Shown one piece after another: positions 7,556 to 46,478 of a DNA stretch of 64,000 nucleotides (position 1 is its first letter; every line of letters begins with the position of its first letter). Where the stretch lies: the NCBI GenBank assembly GCA_041651195.1, contig JBAZJR010000001.1:7601-71600 (forward strand), given 5' to 3'. The stretch is from Patescibacteria group bacterium. Its GTDB lineage: Bacteria; Patescibacteriota; Patescibacteriia; Patescibacteriales; UBA12465. Position numbers and translations under genes: made by a program. The notes under the pieces were generated by a model. That model saw only the letters and a list, made by a program, of their open reading frames with translations, was not told where the DNA came from and ran no database searches.

Positions 7556-8524
7556 CTATAGCCCGGAGATTAGCAAAGTTAATTCAGTTTTGATATCGCC
7601 CCGTCCGGTTTTGTTTAAAAAATCTAAGCGGACTAAGCGGTTTAAATAATTTTTTAAGGCCGTGATGCTAAAATTCCGAGCTTGAGCGAGCCCCTTTTTG
7701 ACTACGAAAGGGTGGAGCCGGAGTTGAGAAGCTAAATCGGCCGGATTGGCCTTATCATCGAGAGCGGAGCGGAGCTGCAGTAAGATTTTGAATTGACGGA
7801 TTAGCATCGTAATCAGGTATTCATCGCTTAAGCCAGCCGAATATTGTCTATGCAATAAGCTGATAGCCGTTTTTTTATCTTTTGCGCTTAAAGCGTCGGT
7901 CAGGCCGAAGATATCTTCATCGTAGGAGCCGGAGACCATCTCTTTGACATCGCTGGTAGCAATGGTCTTAGTGCTGACAGCGAAGGCTAGTTTTTTTAAG
8001 CTGCTGGCGATGATCCAGAGGTCGCCGCCGCTCAGGTTGATTAAGAGGGAAGCGGCGGAAACGCCGATTTCTTTTTGGTAAGAATTAGCCTCTTTCTTGA
8101 TGAAAGTAGAGAGTTGACTGTCGGAGAGGGGTTTGAATTCCTGGGAGTATGGCTGTTTGGCCAGATAGGCGAATAATTTTTTAGCTTCAACCTTCAGCTT
8201 ATTATTTTTGGCGTCTAATTCGGTATCGCGGAAGATGATTACATCGTCATCACGGTGTTCTAGCCTTTTTAAATAATCAGTCAGCGTCGTGAAGATCTGG
8301 TCTTTTTTGTTCTTGAAGATATCTTCTATGACGACTAGCCTTTTCCTGACGAAGAGAGAGCCGGTATTAAGTTTTTCGCTGATTTCTTTCAAGCTCGCCG
8401 TCGCACCATCCACCACGCTCAAGCTGCTGGCGCCCGGGTCGACGTCACGGGTGAATTTGGCTTGTAATTCGCGGAGGAAACGTCGGGAACGGAAAGTGTC
8501 GCTACCATGCAAGAAGATAATCAT
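7556..8524 (-). CDS. holA: DNA polymerase III delta subunit
   Basis: 322 aa. N-terminus MIIFLHGSDTFRSRRFLRELQAKF and overall length and architecture are typical of HolA. Confidence 0.75.
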   Translation of the reverse strand: MIIFLHGSDTFRSRRFLRELQAKFTRDVDPGASSLSVVDGATASLKEISEKLNTGSLFVRKRLVVIEDIFKNKKDQIFTTLTDYLKRLEHRDDDVIIFRDTELDAKNNKLKVEAKKLFAYLAKQPYSQEFKPLSDSQLSTFIKKEANSYQKEIGVSAASLLINLSGGDLWIIASSLKKLAFAVSTKTIATSDVKEMVSGSYDEDIFGLTDALSAKDKKTAISLLHRQYSAGLSDEYLITMLIRQFKILLQLRSALDDKANPADLASQLRLHPFVVKKGLAQARNFSITALKNYLNRLVRLDFLNKTGRGDIKTELTLLISGL

Positions 8525-32436: not shown

Positions 32437-33201
32437 CTATTCTTTGCTGATGCTCCAGAGCGTTTCAAACATCAGCCTGTTCATCTCATAAATATCTTTA
32501 TTTTCGATCAGTATGGAGATTATTTTTCCCTTATTGATAACCTGGAAAGATATTTTGCCGTCATAAATCTGGATAGAAGTCTTGAAGGTGGCGGACAGAT
32601 TCTCTAAATAACGGATAGCCGTTATTTTTTCATATTCAGAATTTTGTTCACTCCCTTGATCGGGCCGTTCACCGACACGGATAATTTTTTTCTTTATTCC
32701 GAGCTTCTCTCGTTTTTGTTTATATTCCAGATTGGCTTCTTGAAATTCACCCTCTTCATTAAGGGCTTGTTTATTCAGGAGAAGATAGATTTCCGTTTTG
32801 CTCGATAAAGTGTCTTCTAAAATTTTTCGCAGCCCTTCTTCTCCCTCATAAAATCTCACTCCCGGCTTATTGCTGATCAGGCTATAAGCGGAAATCAGGT
32901 CGGGCAGGGCGTTGATGAATTCCTGTTTATGCTTGATCGCTTCTTTTTCTTTCTGCTCAGCAATTGTCTCTAAATTATAGGGGTGTTCGGCGGCAAAAAT
33001 AGTGATACCCTTAACTTCCTCGGTCTTGGAGACTAAATTGAGCCTAATTAACTCATCCAAGCCTTTATAAGCGACCCCGCGGGGCCGTTTTATTTTTTTA
33101 GCGATATTACTGGCCTTGTCAGGGCCGGAATTCAGCAGGGAATCCAGGATTTCCGCCTGGACCTTGGATAAGCCGAGATTATAAAGAGTTTTTTCGTACA
33201 T
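32437..33201 (-). CDS. TrmB-family transcriptional regulator
   Basis: N-terminal wHTH (LGLSKVQAEILDSLLNSGPDKASNIAKKIKRPRGVAYKGLDELIRLNLV) followed by a TrmB-like C-terminal domain. Confidence 0.75.
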   Translation of the reverse strand: MYEKTLYNLGLSKVQAEILDSLLNSGPDKASNIAKKIKRPRGVAYKGLDELIRLNLVSKTEEVKGITIFAAEHPYNLETIAEQKEKEAIKHKQEFINALPDLISAYSLISNKPGVRFYEGEEGLRKILEDTLSSKTEIYLLLNKQALNEEGEFQEANLEYKQKREKLGIKKKIIRVGERPDQGSEQNSEYEKITAIRYLENLSATFKTSIQIYDGKISFQVINKGKIISILIENKDIYEMNRLMFETLWSISKE

Positions 33202-33441
33202 ATATTTGTTTTTTATTGTTTTAATAGTGGCTAGGGGGGATTCTTCCTGTGGATAACTTTACAAAAATTAAGTTTTATTTTGTTAGTAGTTTAAGGGTCA
33301 CATTAATCCATAGTCATATTATAGCGCATATTAAATATAGTGTCAACTCTTAAAATGACAAAAAAAGAAAATAAATATGCGTATTTAAAGCATTTCTGTC
33401 TATATTTTAATAACATTTGCCAAAAATAGTCTTTTTAAGTC

Positions 33442-33470
33442 TTGACAATTATCTCAGAGCGTGCTAAACT
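33442..33470 (+). promoter_or_regulatory. near-consensus sigma70-type promoter at the head of the island
   Basis: TTGACA (33442-47), a 17-nt spacer ending in TGc (extended -10), then TAAACT (33465-70). The predicted TSS is about 33477. Confidence 0.7.
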
Positions 33471-33584
33471 TAAGTTATCGAAAATGAGAAAGGAAAGAAA
33501 CGGGCAAAACGCAGTACATTACATTCAAATAAAATAATGGAAGGAGAGAGCCATTATCAACTTAGTTTACTACGATCTTTATAT

Positions 33585-33651
33585 AAAGGGGTATTAGGCG
33601 GGTTAAGCTTTCTCATTCTATTAGAAAGTTTTTCCGCTTAGTACCCTTTTT
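33585..33651 (+). terminator. long three-tier hairpin ending in a U-run (attenuator/terminator candidate)
   Basis: Pairings AAAGGG/CCCUUU, GGCGG/CCGCU and AAGCUUUCU/AGAAAGUUU, with U47-U51 at the 3' side. It lies about 110-175 nt after the predicted TSS. Confidence 0.45.
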
Positions 33652-34265
33652 GGTTGGAAGAGAGCGGATAGTCATGGAGAGGAGAGAGATTTAGTCCCTG
33701 CGCTAGCGCCCACAGCCTAGAGCAGCTCTAAATAAGAAGCGCGGCCGATCGGAACTAAAAATATCATTTGGAAACGCCACCCCATGCCGTTTCCCAAAAT
33801 TCCTTCAAGGACGCCGAATAAACTCCCCTTCATAACTATCCGCTTTGAGCGGAACCGAAGCGATTGCGGCACAATTGCCCCAATTATTTAGGGAATAAAT
33901 AAATCAGTTAGATCAGCTTATCGATTTTAGGAGATCAAATGGACACATAAGCTTTAAGAATAAAGCGGAGAGGGTTCATCTCCTGAGATTAATAAAGATT
34001 TAACAGTTTGCTTCCGGGATCAACCCGGGATCAGGCGGGAAGTGAGTCAGAGCCGAGTAGCGTCGCAAACCGCCGCGGAGCCGAGACGATCCTAGTAGCG
34101 CGTGGCCCAGTTATCCTTAACGGGATGAGCAAGCTCCGGGAACGGCACGAACGCCACCGTCTTCTTACGAGGAGATCGGCTGAGCCCCAAGCCTTGAACA
34201 AGCTTAGGCCCAGAAATTTCCTCGGAAAAGTATAATTAGCCGAGAAAAAGTTCTTTGAAACTAAT
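33652..34265 (+). ncRNA. candidate large structured non-coding leader RNA (class unknown)
   Basis: About 600 nt with no credible ORF. It is more GC-rich than the flanks and dense in local hairpins (for example GGAAACG/CGUUUCC at 33770-94 and GGAGA-GGGUUCA-UCUCC at 33967-84). It is co-oriented with the operon. Confidence 0.3.
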
Positions 34266-34289: not shown

Positions 34290-34517
34290 GTGAGTAAAGT
34301 AAGCGCGGGAAAGGATATGAGTGATATTCAAATTCAATTGGTAAATGCTGGTCTAACCACCCAGCAAAAAATTGACGAAATCAATCGCCAGAAGGCGATT
34401 GATAAAAATTTTGTCCGGGTTGCGCGAAAAGCAAAACCCGGAGTTTCTCCCAAAATTTGGGAGAAATATGCCCGCTTGAAAAGGCAGGCGTCAAAAGATT
34501 TACAGTTTGTATACTAA
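34290..34517 (+). CDS. small basic protein (75 aa), unknown function
   Basis: The GTG at 34290 lies 6 nt after AAGGAG (34278-83). The ORF track opens at an upstream TTG (34266) that lacks an SD. Confidence 0.55.
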   Translation: MSKVSAGKDMSDIQIQLVNAGLTTQQKIDEINRQKAIDKNFVRVARKAKPGVSPKIWEKYARLKRQASKDLQFVY

Positions 34518-34631
34518 ACTGTAAATCAAGTTTCAAATTGGTTTAGCTTATCCCAAATCAAAAAATAAGCAGGCTATCCCACCGGATCGCCGGAGCTATT
34601 TCTACGCTCGAAGCGTCCATAAAAAGTTTAA

Positions 34632-34710
34632 AGAGCAGTGTCGTTCAAACATTGCTCTCCCTCCCGGGATGCGTGTTCCGGCTGATGAGTCCGAAAGGAC
34701 GAAAGGGAAG
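34632..34710 (+). ncRNA. hammerhead ribozyme copy 1 (type III) with 5' P0 hairpin
   Basis: P0 AGAGCAGUG/CAUUGCUCU. CCCUC with cleavage predicted after C34663. Stem I CCGGGA-UGCGUG-UUCCGG. Core CUGAUGA. Stem II GUCC-GAAA-GGAC. Then GAAA and GGGA. Confidence 0.9.
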
Positions 34711-34745
34711 TTCTTTGAAATTAAATTCATTAAATAAAATGCGGC

Positions 34746-34766
34746 TCCGACGTATTCGGGCAAGGA
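34746..34766 (+). promoter_or_regulatory. conserved leader hairpin plus SD (copy A)
   Basis: UCCGA-CGUAU-UCGGG hairpin, then cAAGGA, with the ATG 5 nt later. It is preceded by an A-rich tract and GCGGC. Confidence 0.7.
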
Positions 34767-35485: not shown

Positions 35486-35579
35486 TTAAGAAGAGATTGG
35501 GTGCGATTCGGGATTAAACCTTGAGGTTATGCTGTTAACCTTGCCGAATAAAAGCGGATCACCGCGACAGTAAGTTCAC

Positions 35580-35660
35580 GAGGGATGGCGTCAGTTCAAA
35601 CGTTGTCCTCCCTCCCGAGATGCGTGTCTCGGCTGATGAGTCCGAAAGGACGAAAGGGAA
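35580..35660 (+). ncRNA. hammerhead ribozyme copy 2 (type III) with 5' P0 hairpin
   Basis: P0 AGGGAUGGCG/CGUUGUCCU. CCCUC with cleavage after C35614. Stem I CCGAGA-UGCGUG-UCUCGG, a compensatory G:C to A:U change relative to copies 1, 3 and 4. Canonical core. Confidence 0.9.
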
Positions 35661-35789
35661 GTTCTTTAAAACCAGGCATTAATGGATTTAATTATTTTTT
35701 GAGATGTTTTTATAATTGTGTTCGTTCCGTCCAGATGATTTAAAGACGAATCGGATAATAATTAAATTCATTAAGTAAAAAAATGCGGC

Positions 35790-35810
35790 TCCGACGTATT
35801 CGGGCAAGGA
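35790..35810 (+). promoter_or_regulatory. conserved leader hairpin plus SD (copy B)
   Basis: Identical to copy A (UCCGA-CGUAU-UCGGG-cAAGGA). About 50 nt of upstream sequence (ttaaattcattaa.taaaa..atgcggc) is also shared with copy A. Confidence 0.7.
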
Positions 35811-35816
35811 TGAAAG

Positions 35817-37538
35817 TTGAAAAGGATTATAGTTTGCGGGCCACCCCATAGTGGAAAATCAGTGTTTTTAGCGAATCTGATGCGGCTGCTACCGCCAGAT
35901 TCGTTTTATTTAGCCTTCGCCGCTCCGGACGGCGAATGGCATTGGAGTAATTTCGGTGACCAGGATCTCGTATCCGTAGTTCGCCAGAAAGGAAAGTTCT
36001 CCGAGGATTTCGTTTCCTCAATGGAGAACGCCATTCGGAACAACCAGCAGCCGCTCGTGTTGGTTGACACCGGGGGAGTAATGTCCCCGGAAAACGGGCG
36101 GATATTTGATGTTTGCGAAGGGTGCATCATCCTCGCAAACAGCGAGAAAAGTAATGACGCAATTCCTGCCTGGCGTGAATTTGCCGCTAGCCATAGCGTG
36201 CAGGTTCTGGCCGAAATCGTTAGTGACCTTCATGGCACTAATGAACTCATCTCGTCGGGAGATGGGGATGGCGGGAAAATTATCGGTCGGATTGCCGGCC
36301 TTGAGCGCGGGCAGACAATTAATTCGCCCGTGCTGGAGGCGGTGGCAAACCGCCTGCGGGAAGTTATCCGGAGCAATTCGGAACTGACCGAAGGCGAGCT
36401 TCTTTGTAATGTGAACGGCGCCACTCTCGTGGACCGTATCGGCATTACCGAAAAGAATGACCCTTTCCTGGGGGTCAGGCCGATTCATCTCCAGGATGCC
36501 CTGCGTCTGACTAGTGCAGTGGCAAAATTAGAGACTGTGCGCATTTGGAATGTGCGCGCAGCTATCCTGGCCTGTGCTATGGCGAGCAGGTTCTCTGGCA
36601 ACATTGAACTATATGATGTTGCTAAGGGATATTTTCGTATCCCGGATGCGGTTCCGCAAGGCGCAGGGTGCAAGGATTGCGGTGTCGAATGGGAAGTGTT
36701 AGAGCTCCCCGAATTTACACTGGTTAGATTCCGTCCAACGCGGTTTATTACCGAGCGCGATTTGCCTAATATTTATCCTCCGGTAGTTGACACCACCAAA
36801 CCGGTCGTGATTGCTCACGACGGACCGCCGATGTGGCTTGATGCCACGGTAGTTCGTGCTTATTGGCGCTCGGGCGTGCCATACGTGGCTATGCTTTGGC
36901 CCGTGGAAAGTGCCCGCTCCCAAAAGCATCTTGGCGGGAAAAAATGGGATAAGGTATACCCGTTTGCTGGACCGGCCGTGGTAGTTGCTGGATCGGCAGA
37001 GAAAATCGGAGACATTATTCCAGTCTCCTTTGACCTCTTGAAATGGGACGCGCCGGTTGTTGGAAAATTAGCGTCTGGGCAAATAGTGATTGATCGCAAG
37101 GACAGCCATGTCCAAGGCCATTCCGAAGTCCTTCCTCTTCTTGTGGAAGCGCTTGCAAAGATCCATGCTATGGACCGTAAGAGTTTCTGTGAAGAGATAA
37201 GATTTTGTCGTACCATAGGCGAAACAATCTGCATTAATACAACTGACGCTGATGAAATTATTTATGCTCAACGCCCAAATCGCCGCGGGTTGACGCGGTT
37301 TGTCAAAAATCGTCAGCCCGAAGCAACCAGTTCAGTGGTTGCTTGCTTCATGAAAAATGATGGTATGGGAGGAGCCTATCTTCTCACAACCGCATTTATT
37401 GGGAGTCGCGCTCCTGCCGAGCCGTGGGACAAGCAGTGGGCGACCGAGGAATCGGCTACTTTCTGGAATACCCATGCTTTGATTTTTGAGAAATCAGAGA
37501 TCGTTGATGGGACTGAAACTGATAAGTGCCCATGGTAA
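35817..37538 (+). CDS. P-loop NTPase fused to a large C-terminal region with possible Csx3-like segments
   Basis: The TTG start lies 6 nt after the leader SD. Walker A is CGPPHSGKS and Walker B-like is LVLVDTGG. Segments RIWNVRAAILACAMA...ELYDVAKGYFRI and HDGPPMWLDATVV...VAMLWP...GPAVVVAGS are present. Confidence 0.7.
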   Translation: MKRIIVCGPPHSGKSVFLANLMRLLPPDSFYLAFAAPDGEWHWSNFGDQDLVSVVRQKGKFSEDFVSSMENAIRNNQQPLVLVDTGGVMSPENGRIFDVCEGCIILANSEKSNDAIPAWREFAASHSVQVLAEIVSDLHGTNELISSGDGDGGKIIGRIAGLERGQTINSPVLEAVANRLREVIRSNSELTEGELLCNVNGATLVDRIGITEKNDPFLGVRPIHLQDALRLTSAVAKLETVRIWNVRAAILACAMASRFSGNIELYDVAKGYFRIPDAVPQGAGCKDCGVEWEVLELPEFTLVRFRPTRFITERDLPNIYPPVVDTTKPVVIAHDGPPMWLDATVVRAYWRSGVPYVAMLWPVESARSQKHLGGKKWDKVYPFAGPAVVVAGSAEKIGDIIPVSFDLLKWDAPVVGKLASGQIVIDRKDSHVQGHSEVLPLLVEALAKIHAMDRKSFCEEIRFCRTIGETICINTTDADEIIYAQRPNRRGLTRFVKNRQPEATSSVVACFMKNDGMGGAYLLTTAFIGSRAPAEPWDKQWATEESATFWNTHALIFEKSEIVDGTETDKCPW

Positions 37539-37579
37539 TAATCAGTATAAACCAATAGATAAATCATAAAAACCGCGGC

Positions 37580-37604
37580 CCCGACGGTCAAATCGGGCAA
37601 GGAG
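37580..37604 (+). promoter_or_regulatory. conserved leader hairpin plus SD (copy C)
   Basis: CCCGA-CGGUCAAA-UCGGG, then cAAGGAG, with the ATG 5 nt later. It is preceded by aaaaaCCGCGGC. Confidence 0.65.
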
Positions 37605-38005: not shown

Positions 38006-38064
38006 AGTTGCGGATCCTCTAGTCCACGGAGGAATTGGCTAAGCCAGTGGAAAGTTCATGAGAC

Positions 38065-38144
38065 AGAGCAATGATAGTTCAAGCATTGCTCTCCCTCCCG
38101 GGATGCGTGTCCCGGCTGATGAGTCCGAAAGGACGAAAGGGAAG
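38065..38144 (+). ncRNA. hammerhead ribozyme copy 3 (type III) with 5' P0 hairpin
   Basis: P0 AGAGCAAUG/CAUUGCUCU, a perfect 9 bp. CCCUC with cleavage after C38097. Stem I CCGGGA-UGCGUG-UCCCGG. Canonical core and GAAA-capped stem II. Confidence 0.9.
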
Positions 38145-41194: not shown

Positions 41195-42418
41195 ATGCGA
41201 TATATTAGTTTTTCTGATATTAAGTCCGCCGTAGATTTATATCATGGTTTACCGGCCGCCACCTTTTTCAAAGGGTTGACCGGTTATGGGTTAGTTTCCG
41301 AAGACGGAGTGGAGAGTATTGGCAAGATCGGACCTTGGTCCGGTATTTGGAAGCCGATGTATTTCTTTATTTCTGGCGGACAGCAACAAGCTTCTAAAAT
41401 TTTAACTGCTGATGATATTAAAAAATCAGTAGAAAAATTTTTAGGAAATGAGCTGTTTGCTCTGTTGCGAGTAAAAACCGGAAAAGGAATTAGATTGAAT
41501 TCTGGGTTTCCAGAAGTAGTTGATTCCGCCAAATCTGAAACAGAAATCAGCTATGAGTTAAATCATTTCGGCGGACGGTCAATTACACCACGGCTGGAAG
41601 TCGGACTTAACTCCTTGCAGGATCCCAATATAAAATGGCAGTCGGGATTCCTGTATCAAGATAAAAATCATGTTGCCCCAAAAATAAATAAGCGATTGTT
41701 GCTTAGTCGCGTTTTGGTGCAAAGTGATTTTGCTGATCAGGCTAGTTATGAGATAGCCTGGCAGGAAGTGGAGAAAGAAATAAAAAGATTGCTTTTTATG
41801 CACTGTGAGGGCAATCTGGTGAAGGTCGCGACTAATGGTGGCGATCGCGTTAGAACGTTTTTTTCACAGGAACTGACTGGTCTGTTGCCGCACAGTCAGA
41901 TAGACAAAAAAAAGGGTTTTGATTATTCTCAACGTTCGGACGGAACGGTAGTAATTCAAAAATCCGTTCAGCCTCGGGAATATCAAGATGCCGGAACATT
42001 CGAAAAGTATATGGAAGATTTTACGAAAGAATGTTCTCGCGTTTACACCCTTTATTGCCAGCCGCTATCCGATGCTCAAAGGAAAAAACTAGGCAAGCCA
42101 GGCAATGAAGAAGGCGAACTAGTTTTTACCGCCAACGGCGATTTTGAACGCGATGAAAGACGTTCAAATGAAGATAATGAACAGCTGATTATGTGGCGTC
42201 ATCGTCGCGGTGCGCCCCATTTCCCTTATGAAGGCTGGCAGCCGGAGAAGGGAAAAGATTACTATGTAATCTGCCATAAGTGGGGGAATGGTTATCGAGT
42301 ATCTCCTGGCTCGGCTCGCTATGAGCAAAGAACAGGGGAAAAATTCATTGAAAAAATTAAAAAGGAGTTTGACGGCAGCGAGAATGTGATTGCCCAGACT
42401 CCAATCGTTAGTTCTTAA
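41195..42418 (+). CDS. hypothetical protein (407 aa), third gene of the MoxR-VWA block
   Basis: Strong SD (AAGGAGG). No motif recognised. Confidence 0.65.
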   Translation: MRYISFSDIKSAVDLYHGLPAATFFKGLTGYGLVSEDGVESIGKIGPWSGIWKPMYFFISGGQQQASKILTADDIKKSVEKFLGNELFALLRVKTGKGIRLNSGFPEVVDSAKSETEISYELNHFGGRSITPRLEVGLNSLQDPNIKWQSGFLYQDKNHVAPKINKRLLLSRVLVQSDFADQASYEIAWQEVEKEIKRLLFMHCEGNLVKVATNGGDRVRTFFSQELTGLLPHSQIDKKKGFDYSQRSDGTVVIQKSVQPREYQDAGTFEKYMEDFTKECSRVYTLYCQPLSDAQRKKLGKPGNEEGELVFTANGDFERDERRSNEDNEQLIMWRHRRGAPHFPYEGWQPEKGKDYYVICHKWGNGYRVSPGSARYEQRTGEKFIEKIKKEFDGSENVIAQTPIVSS

Positions 42419-42430
42419 AAAAGTTCAAAA

Positions 42431-42506
42431 AAGTGAATAGCATAGTTCCTTTAGGTCTATTCACTTCTTTTCTGAAATCAGCAAGTGATTGGTGATTTCA
42501 GAGAAG
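42431..42506 (+). terminator. two tandem hairpins downstream of the 407-aa gene (weak terminator or processing site)
   Basis: AAGUGAAUAG/CUAUUCACUU (10 bp, loop contains UAGUUCC) is followed by CUUUUCU. Then CUUUUCUGAAAUCA/UGAUUUCAGAGAAG (14 bp with one G:U). Confidence 0.4.
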
Positions 42507-42657: not shown

Positions 42658-42687
42658 AACAAATTAAACCAATAAAAAAATCGCGGC

Positions 42688-42710
42688 CCCGACGTATTCG
42701 GGCAAGGGGA
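42688..42710 (+). promoter_or_regulatory. conserved leader hairpin plus SD (copy D)
   Basis: CCCGA-CGUAU-UCGGG, then cAAGGGGA, with the ATG 4 nt later. It is preceded by aaaaaaaUCGCGGC. Confidence 0.7.
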
Positions 42711-43095: not shown

Positions 43096-43120
43096 AAAGG
43101 GAAGCGTTAAGTTTTTAGCA

Positions 43121-43200
43121 AGGGTGGCACTCGTTCTATTGCCGCCCTACCCTCCCGGGATGCGTGTCCCGGCTGATGAGTCCGAAAGGACGAAAGGGTA
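43121..43200 (+). ncRNA. hammerhead ribozyme copy 4 (type III) with 5' P0 hairpin
   Basis: P0 AGGGUGGCA/UGCCGCCCU. ACCCUC with cleavage after C43154. Stem I CCGGGA-UGCGUG-UCCCGG. Canonical core. The outermost stem III pair is flipped to A:U (ACCCU/AGGGU), where the other copies have U:A. Confidence 0.9.
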
Positions 43201-43273: not shown

Positions 43274-43480
43274 ATGGATATCCAAGAATTTAAATATTTG
43301 TTATCCACTGAGCTTAATAGTGCTGGAATAAAGAACGTCCTCATTAAAGAGGACGGGATAACAATAATTAGGGGCGTTGTTAATGTCCCTAACGAAGAGA
43401 TACAAAACTTTATCGATCGTTATGGGGATAATCCCCTGCCGATTGAGAAGTTATTTGTTTGTGTAAGAGTGCTTCAATAG
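43274..43480 (+). CDS. small protein (68 aa), unknown function
   Basis: Good SD and spacing. It lies entirely between ribozyme copies 4 and 5. Confidence 0.55.
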   Translation: MDIQEFKYLLSTELNSAGIKNVLIKEDGITIIRGVVNVPNEEIQNFIDRYGDNPLPIEKLFVCVRVLQ

Positions 43481-43488
43481 TGTTCAAG

Positions 43489-43587
43489 AGGGATGACGTC
43501 AGTTCAAACGTTGTCCTCCCTCTCAGGATTATATCCTGACTGATGAGTCCTCGTTTTGCCACTAGGGCGGACAAAGGACGAAAGGGA
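43489..43587 (+). ncRNA. hammerhead ribozyme copy 5 (divergent type III)
   Basis: P0 AGGGAUGACG/CGUUGUCCU. CCCUC with cleavage after C43522. Stem I is fully replaced but still paired (UCAGGA-UUAUA-UCCUGA). Core CUGAUGA. Stem II GUCC...GGAC carries a 25-nt insertion. Then GAAA-GGGA. Confidence 0.85.
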
Positions 43588-43814: not shown

Positions 43815-46478
43815 ATGTCTAGACGAAAAAAGACTAACCCCTTGGATTATATCGCTCTGCCGGAATTCAATCTGGACGAGAAAGCGAAGCGCAGCATCTT
43901 GATCGTGATCCTGCTCGTTTTCGGGCTGATCAGCCTGCTCGGGTTATTTAATTTAGCCGGCCATTTCGGCCTCTTTATCTCTAAATGGCTCACGCTTATC
44001 TTCGGTTTCGGCAAATGGCTCGTGCCCTTCATCTTCTTATATTGGGCCCTGGTCTTAGTTCGGAAAGCCAAGCGGCCTCTGAAATTTACGGATTCTCTCG
44101 GCCTATTCCTATTATTCATCTCCTATCAGACTCTTTTCCATTTTTTCCTGGAACCGGCGCGCTGGGAGAGCGCAGTCGCGATCGGGACGGGCGGCGGCTA
44201 TATCGGCTGGTATCTGAGCCGTCTTTTCTTTTACGTTTTCGGTTTTTGGGGCGGAGTTTTGGTCTTAGCCGCCTGCCTCTTGATTTCTCTAGTCTTGGTC
44301 TTCAATACTTCATTATCCCGTCTGATTGGCCAGGATAGTTTTTTCGCTAAGCTCTTCCGCCCCTTCGTCTGGTTTTTTAGGAGCCTGTTCAGCGATTCTG
44401 GCGCGACAGAGGAAAGAGAGAACGAAGGGAAAAAATATATTGATGAGGCGCGTGAAGAGATTTTGGAAGCCTGGCAGAAGAAAGAGGTACCGGCGAGCCT
44501 GGAAATAATCGAGGAAGAAATCGAAGAAGAACCGAGTCCGGCCGCAGCCAAAAAAGATAAGCCGAAAGTCCAGGAAAAGATCGTCTGGCCGAAGCGTTCG
44601 ATCAAGATTGATATGCCGCTCGAACTCCTGAATAATAAATCAGGGAAGGCCATCGGCGGCGATACGGAACTCAATGCCCAGCGGATCCAGAAGACGCTAG
44701 AAAAATTCGGCATCAATGTCGAGATGGGTGAGACTAAAGTCGGTCCGACCGTGACCCAATATACTTTCCGGCCGGCCGAAGGCGTAAAATTATCCCGCAT
44801 CACGACTTTGAATAATGATTTATCGCTAGCCCTAGCGGCGCATCCGATCCGGATCGAAGCGCCGATTCCCGGCAAATCTTTAGTCGGCGTGGAAGTGCCG
44901 AATCGCGCGAAGGCGATCGTCGGTCTGCGAGAAATCTTGGAAGATAGCGCTTTCAAGAGCCGGAAGAATAATCTTTTCATCGCTCTCGGCAAAGACGTGG
45001 CTGGCACGGCTTGGCTCTATGACTTGACCAAGATGCCGCACCTGCTTGTCGCTGGCGCCACCAATTCCGGCAAGTCGGTCTGTTTGAACGCGATCATCGT
45101 CAGCCTGCTCTATCAGAATAATCCGGACGATCTGCGTTTTATCATGGTCGATCCGAAGCGGGTGGAGCTCCCGACCTATAACGGCATCCCGCATCTTTTG
45201 ACGCCGGTCATCACCGATGTCAATAAGACGATCAACGCCTTGAAATGGTGCTTGAACGAGATGGAACGGCGCTATGATGTTTTAAATAAAGCGGGAAAGC
45301 GCAATATCCAATCGTATAACGCGGTGAGCAAGGAAAAATTACCCTATATAGTCTTCATCATCGACGAACTGGCCGACTTCATGATGACTTCCGGCAAGGA
45401 CATGGAAGCGGCGATTATCCGTCTGGCGCAGATGTCGCGCGCTATCGGCATCCATTTGATCCTGGCGACCCAGCGGCCGAGCGTCGATGTCATCACGGGC
45501 TTGATCAAAGCCAACGTGCCGACGCGCATCGCTTTTTCCGTCGCTTCTCTAGTCGATTCAAAGACGATCTTAGATTCTTCCGGTGCGGAAAAACTATTGG
45601 GCCAGGGCGATATGCTGTTTATGTGCGCGGAATTCGCCAAGCCGAAACGCATCCAGGGGGCTTATCTGAGCGATGGCGAAATCAACGATGTTGTGAATTA
45701 TATCAAGGATAAGAGCGGTCCGGCTGAATATCTGGAGGGCGTCACCGACCGCCAGAAAGTCGGCGGCAATGCCGGCGTCGGCCTAGACGGCAACCACGGC
45801 GATGAGGATGAATTATTTGAAGAAGCAAAAGCGATCATCATCAAGGCCGGTAAGGCTTCAACCTCTATGTTGCAGCGCCGCCTGTCTATCGGTTATGGCC
45901 GCGCCGCTAAGATCCTCGATATGCTAGAAGAGGCGGGCATCATCGGTCCGTCTAACGGCGCCAAACCGCGCGAAGTGATGATCAGCCAGGAACAATACGA
46001 AGCGATGGGCGCGAGCCCGCTCAGCGGTTTGCCGGTGCATAATCGAAATGAGGCCGTTGCGCCGGATAGTTATTTAGGCGAAGATGAAGAGGAGGAGGGC
46101 GATGACGGTACTCTGGTCTTTAAAGGCGAGGACAATCGCGTCGCGGAGATTGACGAGGAGGCTGACGAGGAAGAAGCGGCAGAAGGCATTGCCCAAGAAG
46201 AGGAAGAAATAATTAAAGAAAGTTTTGCGGAGGAGCTGGAAGACGCAGAAGAAGCCGATGACGATCTGCCGGCAGAAAAAATAGAAGCTGAAAAGATCAA
46301 GGAAGAATTGCTATTAACGCCGGATGAGCAGGATGAAGTGATCGAGGATGAAGATGAGATCTTGGCGGAAATCAGGGAGAAGAAAAGCGCGCCGGCGTCT
46401 CCGGCAGCCAAGTCTTCAAATCCGGCCAAGAAGCATAATCCGCTTGAAGATGATGACGAGATGTTTTTCGCGAAATAA
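43815..46478 (+). CDS. ftsK: DNA translocase FtsK/SpoIIIE with an acidic linker and tail
   Basis: N-terminal TM helices, Walker A VAGATNSGKS, IIDELADFMM, and a gamma-domain-like SMLQRRLSIGYGRAAKILDMLE. Confidence 0.95.
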   Translation: MSRRKKTNPLDYIALPEFNLDEKAKRSILIVILLVFGLISLLGLFNLAGHFGLFISKWLTLIFGFGKWLVPFIFLYWALVLVRKAKRPLKFTDSLGLFLLFISYQTLFHFFLEPARWESAVAIGTGGGYIGWYLSRLFFYVFGFWGGVLVLAACLLISLVLVFNTSLSRLIGQDSFFAKLFRPFVWFFRSLFSDSGATEERENEGKKYIDEAREEILEAWQKKEVPASLEIIEEEIEEEPSPAAAKKDKPKVQEKIVWPKRSIKIDMPLELLNNKSGKAIGGDTELNAQRIQKTLEKFGINVEMGETKVGPTVTQYTFRPAEGVKLSRITTLNNDLSLALAAHPIRIEAPIPGKSLVGVEVPNRAKAIVGLREILEDSAFKSRKNNLFIALGKDVAGTAWLYDLTKMPHLLVAGATNSGKSVCLNAIIVSLLYQNNPDDLRFIMVDPKRVELPTYNGIPHLLTPVITDVNKTINALKWCLNEMERRYDVLNKAGKRNIQSYNAVSKEKLPYIVFIIDELADFMMTSGKDMEAAIIRLAQMSRAIGIHLILATQRPSVDVITGLIKANVPTRIAFSVASLVDSKTILDSSGAEKLLGQGDMLFMCAEFAKPKRIQGAYLSDGEINDVVNYIKDKSGPAEYLEGVTDRQKVGGNAGVGLDGNHGDEDELFEEAKAIIIKAGKASTSMLQRRLSIGYGRAAKILDMLEEAGIIGPSNGAKPREVMISQEQYEAMGASPLSGLPVHNRNEAVAPDSYLGEDEEEEGDDGTLVFKGEDNRVAEIDEEADEEEAAEGIAQEEEEIIKESFAEELEDAEEADDDLPAEKIEAEKIKEELLLTPDEQDEVIEDEDEILAEIREKKSAPASPAAKSSNPAKKHNPLEDDDEMFFAK

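Follow-up and report, generated by a model that had tools for sequence, protein, structure and literature searches.

The 64,000-nucleotide stretch of a Patescibacteria genome analysed here (the window; positions 7,601 to 71,600 of contig JBAZJR010000001.1, assembly GCA_041651195.1) carries five hammerhead ribozymes, and directly 5' of each lies a hairpin, termed P0, whose loop motif is kept while its stem changes. Comparison with related sequences gives roughly an even chance (about 0.5) to the reading that P0 acts as a gene-end hairpin, stacks beneath the short stem III of the ribozyme and becomes the 3' terminus of the upstream RNA after cleavage, and that its loop is a kissing site for a second hairpin, X, in the operon leader.

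An earlier, sequence-only reading of this DNA had described a hairpin of 9-10 bp directly 5' of each ribozyme, with stems that differ and yet stay paired, and with GUUC in all five loops and GUUCAA in four. All of this is confirmed in the window (Table 1). Each P0 has 9-10 bp and ends 0-1 nt before CCCUC, and copies 2 and 5 have a cleaner register of 10 bp (GGGAUGRCGU/ACGUUGUCCU). From copy 1 to copy 5, the loops read UCGUUCAAA, (U)CAGUUCAA(A), AUAGUUCAAG, CUCGUUCUAU and (U)CAGUUCAA(A). A covariance model of P0 only (R2), run on the 64 kb without speed filters, scores the five hairpins at 42-55 bits (E 1e-9 to 1e-13) and finds nothing else below E 0.38. Hairpins with a GTTC loop are otherwise unenriched in the window: eight lie on the + strand, and five of these are P0s.

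With a covariance model that spans the entire element (R1), 20 copies were gathered from about ten Patescibacteria genomes, and 19 of these are distinct. Aligning homologues for covariation had been proposed with the sequence-only reading, and both P0 and a GUUY loop proved to be conserved in the 19 distinct elements. All nine pairs of the P0 stem change on both sides, with 97% of cells paired, and slid and shuffled controls are far lower. The loop has GUUC in 17 of the 19 and GUUU in two copies from locus L227, usually with AA next; GUUC as the motif thus holds for the window copies, whereas the relatives show GUUYAA, the two L227 copies having GUUUAA. Five elements whose stems are unrelated share the apex UUGUUCAA, in which UU and AA are the top stem pairs, and there are at least eight unrelated P0 stem sequences among which an apex of 4-8 nt is retained. 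Since the stems are replaced and the loop motif stays, the loop itself appears to be a recognised element, as had been suspected. Overlooked in the sequence-only reading was a single-stranded box, AAGUUYAAA, which lies 2-8 nt 5' of every P0 and is kept in 19 of 19 elements. AAGUUC often occurs a third time directly after the ribozyme.

The candidate partner of the P0 loop is X, a hairpin about 470 nt 5' of hammerhead 1. Its apical loop includes UUGAACAA (34194-34201), an exact reverse complement to the consensus of the P0 apex, UUGUUCAA. When the X loop is compared with 22 apexes of P0s and ribozyme-less copies, the longest Watson-Crick complement averages 6.0 nt; it is at least 6 nt, the loop complementarity taken to mark a kissing pair, in 14 of the 22, and 8 nt in six. 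Shuffled X loops average 3.4 nt, and in 2000 shuffles the observed mean is never attained. Variants stay G.U-compatible, as with GUUU in the L227 loops and UUGAAU in the X loop of L065. Kissing loops are familiar from antisense systems such as CopA/CopT, RNA I/RNA II and hok/sok, in which YUNR U-turn loops occur. P0 and X are like these systems in having 6-8 nt of loop complementarity and YUNR-type sequences (UUCA or UUUA in P0, UUGA in X). They are unlike them in that both partners are on one sense transcript, where one leader loop would face many gene-end loops and additional single-stranded copies, and in that there is no antisense gene.

X is itself well conserved. Even the more distant genomes of the hammerhead lineage share 80-85% identity with it over the stretches that align, its internal loop (GAUCGG opposite AAAUU) is invariant, and a model of it (R3) scores 80-96 bits in every hammerhead-lineage genome whose locus spans that position; Rfam gave no match to it. 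Compensatory changes turn CGAGGA/UCCUCG into UGAGGA/UCCUCA or CGAAGA/UCUUCG, and CUGAG/CUCAG into CCGAG/CUCGG or CCGAA/UUCGG. Over helices A and B in 13 genomes, 92% of cells are paired on the sense strand, nine of 13 pairs change on both sides, and several sense G.U pairs would be C.A in antisense. Because of this pairing in the wider family and the sense G.U pairs, X is taken as part of the sense leader of the operon. A minus-strand X, which would be a P0-like GUUCA hairpin, is favoured by the G.U counts of the close relatives and was rejected on the wider family.

Whether the P0 loop meets a protein or another loop had been left undecided in the sequence-only reading. The evidence favours a loop-loop contact, with the partner in the leader and not in the ribozyme. 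GUUYAA in loop and box could instead be the site of an RNA-binding protein (a nuclease, a stabiliser or an operon-encoded factor), the complement in X being coincidental or a competitor. The motif occurs two or three times per element in varied settings (a loop of 4-10 nt, the single-stranded box, AAGUUC after the ribozyme), a pattern typical of proteins that bind several sites; the Y at position 4 might just as well reflect protein tolerance, and a broad 6-mer test for pairing with X, given below, is weak. Such a site would, however, leave unexplained the exact 8-nt complement in X and the lineage-matched pairs of X and gene-end loops in L237, L233, L231 and L229. No candidate for such a protein emerged: the operon proteins that match known domains are B116-like, Csx3-AAA, MoxR and VWA. 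A protein site is considered the less likely reading, although still a plausible one.

Contacts nearer to the ribozyme were also considered. A contact with a loop of the ribozyme itself was rejected, since P0 would stack away from loops I and II and neither has GAAC. A pseudoknot between the P0 loop and the sequence after the ribozyme was rejected as inconsistent across copies (after element 1 comes UUUGAA, after element 3 GAAC).

The lineage-matched pairs come from syntenic operons that lack hammerheads, in which X homologues stand at the same position with other loops. L231 and L233 have the X loop YCUAACCAAG (UAACCAAG) and gene-end hairpin loops CUUGGUUUU, UGUUUGGUUACU and UUGGUU, followed by CUUUAUU tails; the gene-end loops of L233 and L231 that match UAACCAAG do so by the 7-mers UUGGUUA and CUUGGUU. 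In L237, where the X loop is CUAAACCAG, a box with the perfect 9-nt complement CUGGUUUAG lies beside a hairpin with the loop UUGGUUU, and the loop of another hairpin contains the 8-nt complement CUGGUUUA. L229 has the X loop AUUAACCAC (AUUAACCA) and UGGUUAAU at a hairpin apex, a 7-mer in the scan and an 8-mer by eye. Hairpin loops that match the UUGAAC class number 16 in hammerhead-lineage loci as against three in hammerhead-less ones, and those that match the UAACCAA class number two as against ten. An open reading frame (ORF)-based definition of intergenic DNA was dropped from the motif counts because it masked too much in G+C-rich loci. In intergenic DNA of the window, targets of the X loop number six in sense and none in antisense.

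This co-variation of the X loop and gene-end loops between lineages is suggestive. It may be, and this is put forward tentatively, that the operon has a form of RNA-addressed punctuation, in which the X loop would read an address in every gene-end hairpin loop and upstream box, hammerheads having been recruited behind these hairpins in one lineage to make 3' ends. As part of the same tentative proposal, address and reader would co-evolve as pairs (UUGAACAA-UUGUUCAA, UAACCAAG-CUUGGUUA and CUAAACCAG-CUGGUUUAG). Lineage co-variation would also follow from a changed protein specificity if GTTCAA/TTGAAC were a half-site for a co-evolving DNA-binding regulator, for example the divergent TrmB-family protein, whose gene adjoins the operon in every syntenic locus. 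On double-stranded DNA the X motif is the P0 motif inverted, and its opposite orientation in X would be explained. This is nonetheless quite improbable: the sites are at the apex of hairpins with covarying stems, G.U pairs included, which argues for selection on RNA; the spacing from box to loop (19-26 nt, counted by hand) is not helically phased; the strand bias is six to none; and a regulator site would need more than six bases.

The GUUCA-loop hairpin also occurs without a ribozyme. Three such copies had been listed in the window by the sequence-only reading, of which one resembles P0 and two are not upheld. The module at 42421-42466 begins 3 nt past the stop codon of a 407-aa gene and has AGUUC in its hairpin loop, and the stretch 42416-42470 is the best non-member match of the R2 model (13 bits, E 0.38). 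The hairpin at 42611-57 is unreported by that model even at E 10; that at 33967-84 was rejected as a module of this type, being a 5-bp hairpin in a conserved leader stretch, with GUCCA in L236 and no R2 match. Clear ribozyme-less copies are found in relatives (three in L235, L087 at 8345, L065 at 2387), where a box, a hairpin of 9-11 bp with a (U)GUUCA loop and a U/C tail (CUCUUUUC or UCUCUUUCC) stand just past stop codons. Their tails are mixed U/C. The occurrence of this hairpin without a ribozyme makes it a separable gene-end module, P0 being the module with a hammerhead behind it. P0 does not behave as an intrinsic terminator: it is followed by CCCUC and the ribozyme, with no U-tract, and a terminator scan lists none of the P0s. 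An integron attC site, in which complementary R'' (RYYYAAC) and R' (GTTRRRY) boxes make up the hairpin base, was rejected as well, since GTTCAA is in the loop and not at the hairpin base, and all copies are in one sense with no inverse box.

The ribozymes have the form of type III hammerheads (RF00008, clan CL00010), with stems I and II closed and stem III open. The five cores (CTGATGA...GAAAGGG) are on the + strand at 34682, 35633, 38116, 43173 and 43540, where 0.04 would be expected by chance. Hammerhead 1 consists of stem I CCGGG/UCCGG, CUGAUGA, stem II GUCC-GAAA-GGAC and GAAAGGG. CUGAUGA, GAAA and the cleavage triplet CUC, which fits NUH, are present in all five copies and likewise in the 20 related elements, one of which has CUA. 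Pairs change on both sides in five of five positions of stem I, two of four of stem III and one of four of stem II, and the stems are 100% paired; stem III goes from CCCU/AGGG to UCCUU/AAGGA, UCUGU/ACAGA or CGCU/AGCG, and stem II from GUCC/GGAC to GUCG/CGAC. As all three stems covary, the ribozymes appear to be under selection. Unlike RF00008, they have a stem III of 4-5 bp, and they score below its gathering threshold, so that standard annotation misses them. The Rfam scan gave no hammerhead at gathering (48.5 bits), two below it (hammerhead 1, and hammerhead 5 at 34.9 bits) and no report of the other three at E<=1, a shortfall attributed to the short stem III and the seed alignment of the model, not to an absent core.

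These features suggest the following course of events. The operon would be transcribed as one long RNA from a promoter at 33442-70. P0 would fold first and show CCCU(C) at its base, and the emerging GAAAGGG would form a stem III of 4-5 bp end-to-end on P0, with P0 as an accessory helix that aids its formation, after which the ribozyme would cut behind CCCUC. From hammerhead chemistry it follows that the upstream RNA would end in a terminal hairpin, P0-CCCUC with a 2',3'-cyclic phosphate, in agreement with the end (hairpin-CCCUC>p) that the sequence-only reading had predicted, and that the downstream product would begin with a 5'-OH and the ribozyme body. The P0 apex (UUGUUCAA, minimally GUUYAA) and the upstream box would then dock on the X loop at UUGAACAA, a contact suggested by complementarity, through kissing of two loops each with a YUNR-type sequence. 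Such a contact would tie the operon leader, or a released leader fragment, to every gene-end hairpin, and the best guess is that it would affect 3'-end formation or stability. Protection of the 3' end would fit the anatomy of P0 and the ribozyme-less copies with U/C-rich tails past stop codons.

Folding adds a possible layer of control. Minimum-energy folds of elements 1 and 4 contain P0 and the native hammerhead; those of elements 2 and 5 contain a register slip that places GAGGGA on UCCCUC (35580-35614 and 43488-43522, + strand). In these models the slipped fold would hide the cleavage strand or, after cleavage, fully pair the new 3' end, and could serve as an on/off switch or a product trap.

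The predicted terminus also recalls a tRNA acceptor/T-arm minihelix, and P0 with its tail might be imagined as a mimic on which a tRNA enzyme acts: the pentamer of a T-loop is matched by UUCAA, and several relatives read helix-A-CCCUC. This is far-fetched, however. A true T-arm has a 7-nt UUCRANY loop closed by G53-C61 on about 12 bp of stem, whereas the P0 loops are 4-10 nt with no register having a 7-nt loop closed by G-C; it also counts against a mimic that neither ARAGORN nor Rfam has a match there and that CCC is already accounted for by stem III.

Table 1. Positions of the ribozyme elements and associated features in the window
Feature	Position	Strand	Details
Likely operon promoter	33442..33470	+	TTGACA-17-TAAACT, TG before the second hexamer; 10/12 matches in consensus scan; function putative
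Leader hairpin X	34164..34230	+	67 nt, three stacked helices, apical loop CCUUGAACAAG
Box 1 of element 1	34624..34632	+	AAGUUUAAA, single-stranded, just 5' of P0
P0 of hammerhead 1	34632..34658	+	stem AGAGCAGUG / CAUUGCUCU, loop UCGUUCAAA; 49 bits (P0 model)
Hammerhead 1, type III	34659..34707	+	CCCUC; predicted cut after 34663; 39.5 bits (RF00008)
Element 2	35572..35658	+	box 35572-79; P0 35582-35609 (54.6 bits); hammerhead 35610-35658; predicted cut after 35614
Element 3	38052..38141	+	box 38052-59; P0 38065-38092 (51.2 bits); hammerhead 38093-38141; predicted cut after 38097
Ribozyme-less module	42421..42466	+	box AAGUUCAAAAAA (42421-32); 10-bp hairpin 42431-66, loop with AUAGUUCC; CUUUUCU; second hairpin
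Element 4	43109..43198	+	box 43109-16; P0 43121-43148 (42.2 bits); spacer A; hammerhead 43150-43198; predicted cut after 43154
Element 5	43480..43586	+	box 43480-88; P0 43490-43517 (53.7 bits); hammerhead 43518-43586, long stem II; predicted cut after 43522

Abutting hairpins are not confined to this operon. Public collections were searched with a pattern for the hammerhead only (stem II plus GAAAGGG), P0 being left out to avoid bias. The pattern returned 36 genome stretches, mostly from Patescibacteria, 67 metagenome and three viral ones; with the window there are 92 distinct matches, 66 of which parse as type III. Stem III is 4-6 bp in nearly all of the 66, and a stable single hairpin ends 0-2 nt before it in 39, as against 58 of 400 random positions (14.5%), so that an abutting hairpin is general for the short-stem-III class. 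Most of these hairpins, which the sequence-only reading had also missed, lack GUUC and bear unrelated loops (GCAA, GAAA, UUCG). The GUUC loop is confined to one sub-family, that of the TrmB / Csx3-AAA / MoxR / VWA operon.

Such variety could suggest that P0 is a mere structural clamp or a former terminator, and that its GUUC loop and box have no function and were kept by recent descent of a repeat of about 110 nt. Over 78 nt the five copies in the window share 73-92% identity, and some foreign elements are orthologous to them (L087 at 6492 to copy 1, L030 at 1804 to copies 2 and 5). Yet all nine stem pairs are doubly changed and at least eight unrelated stems keep an apex of 4-8 nt, whereas drift should erase an unpaired loop sooner than a stem; the motif is kept in ribozyme-less hairpins with unrelated stems as well. 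A functionless loop is accordingly held to be improbable.

Within the operon family, hammerheads are present where the Csx3-AAA protein is 79-81% identical to that of the window (L227, L235, L236), and syntenic operons at 51-68% identity (L228-L234, L237) are without them. The ribozymes would thus be a lineage-specific addition to an older arrangement of box, hairpin and X, which exists without a hammerhead.

Two further groups of hammerheads came to light in the same searches. In the Saccharibacteria loci L016, L029, L078 and L088, a second sub-family, with stem I AACACAUUAAGUGUU, likewise shows an abutting hairpin, together with a conserved AGUUCUAAC box downstream and AAGUUC upstream; judged from these loci, a related address motif may be used more widely. 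In viral and metagenome loci L037, L039, L055, L061, L082 and L095, GAGGUUAA stands before CUGAUGAG, and CCCUCUUAACC after the core. These were unparsed as type III and were set aside; the group looks like another hammerhead topology in viral contigs.

Several observations weigh against P0 as a stacked, X-addressed gene-end hairpin. The presence of P0 shows no anti-correlation with stem III length, lengths being alike with and without the hairpin, and the case for coaxial stacking and 3'-end protection is one of geometry. In the close relatives of the window, the helices of X pair slightly better in antisense (136 as against 125 of 143 cells). The strict complement to X is just 3-5 nt in element 4, L026 and, unless G.U pairs are counted, two L227 copies, and there is one X per transcript for a dozen target sites. 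Among the hammerhead-less loci, no matching hairpin loop was found for the X loops of L228 (CCUAACCAC) and L234 (CCUAAACCAG). A count of 6-mers complementary to the X loop in intergenic sense DNA, set beside counts for shuffled loops, singles out L233 (P 0.0045) and, marginally, the window (P 0.046), and no other locus; it is zero in L228, and L231 matches the loop of the other lineage more than its own. Finally, the genomes are related, and the counts therefore do not represent independent events.

The window comes from a bacterial chromosome and has ftsK (43815-46478), a Mur ligase gene and five tRNA genes, and its closest relatives are uncultured Patescibacteria. A phage origin was rejected on these genes and because the phage collection searched has no match to the window. 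A loose P0-plus-hammerhead pattern returned 120 stretches from viral contigs, none of them a real element; the pattern was poorly chosen. A TrmB-family gene (32437-33201, - strand; Pfam match) faces away from the hammerhead operon. After it come a long leader, small ORFs and genes for a B116-like protein, a Csx3-AAA fusion, a MoxR ATPase, a VWA protein and a protein of about 400 aa, in an operon that is conserved. The fusion protein (573 aa; 35817-37538, + strand) joins a P-loop kinase-like AAA domain to a Csx3/Crn3 ring-nuclease-like domain. Homologues of this protein are numerous in Patescibacteria, and in most of the syntenic loci fetched its gene is followed by bpMoxR and VWA genes.

The putative operon promoter is kept in all relatives and is the sole strong + strand promoter of the region in a consensus scan; internal promoters behind each hammerhead were rejected, since the scan gave no convincing site. 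A perfect TTGACA-17-TATAAT at 33318-33346 on the minus strand is directed toward the TrmB-family gene, back-to-back with the operon promoter, and this back-to-back region is conserved in all relatives. The approximately 700 nt from promoter to X (33470-34160, + strand) contain no ORF of at least 50 aa on either strand, bar one of 51 aa on the minus strand, and are 80-85% identical to L087 and L030; they may form an extended structured leader or else encode a non-coding RNA.

Other small features lie in or near the leader. At 34248-34260 (+ strand), 18 nt past X, the sequence that follows hammerhead 1 (AAGUUCUUUGAAA) recurs without a ribozyme. Its counterpart in L087, L030 and L002 is GAGGGAAGAGUUCUUUAAA or GAGGGAAAGUUCUUUG, like the hammerhead 3' end GAAAGGGAAGUUCUUUAAA, and the stretch may be a ribozyme remnant or a separate module of the 5' untranslated region. 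The drum RNA motif (RF02958) has a match below threshold at 34370-34480 (+ strand; 31.3 bits where gathering requires 43, with E 0.0013 for a search of 1.4 kb), within a putative 66-aa ORF (34317-34517). A second repeat, GCGGCYCCGACGUAUUCGGGCAAGG, occurs at 34741-34765, 35785-35809 and 42683-42707, with a variant near 37572-37600. It comprises a small hairpin (CCGACGUAUUCGG) and then a ribosome-binding-like AAGG, 6-8 nt 5' of the start codons of four genes, and could be a shared translational leader or operator.

Stem-loops at the 3' end are known to stabilise bacterial mRNAs, and intrinsic terminators also leave hairpins. P0 is like the former in that a stable hairpin is predicted to close the upstream product at its 3' terminus, and unlike terminators in that its 3' end would come from ribozyme cleavage. 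RiboJ-type synthetic insulators likewise join a hammerhead to an accessory hairpin for a defined RNA end; there the hairpin is downstream and engineered, whereas P0 is upstream and natural and has a conserved loop.

Among natural hammerheads, the nearest parallel is found in clustered bacterial and prophage ribozymes, which flank single genes or short gene blocks, in vitro cleavage having been shown for three such arrangements (Perreault et al. 2011, PMC3088659). As in those clusters, several hammerheads in the same orientation punctuate a multi-gene transcript, implying gene-length processing. The present case differs in being a conserved chromosomal operon of Patescibacteria with a covarying upstream hairpin, a conserved loop and a box; term searches of that paper returned no mention of such an upstream helix. 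The sequence-only reading did not recognise P0 as part of described hammerhead architecture, and a full-text literature search, incomplete in coverage, gave no such helix beside hammerheads, no upstream accessory hairpin with a conserved loop, and no report of hammerheads from Patescibacteria or the candidate phyla radiation. Hammerhead clusters and the type III form are thus already known; of P0 with its conserved loop, box and X, no description was found in the literature covered by that search.

Gene-flanking hammerheads have been known in bacteria since 2011. A ribozyme tied to a separable gene-end module points to a job for them, that of making and marking 3' ends inside an operon, and X offers a testable hypothesis for how the P0 loop is read. 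Hammerheads with an accessory helix, falling below the Rfam threshold as these do, have probably been widely missed in Patescibacteria genomes. If the gene-end hairpins are indeed addressed by the leader, this would be a new form of cis or trans RNA control of operon processing or read-through in Patescibacteria.

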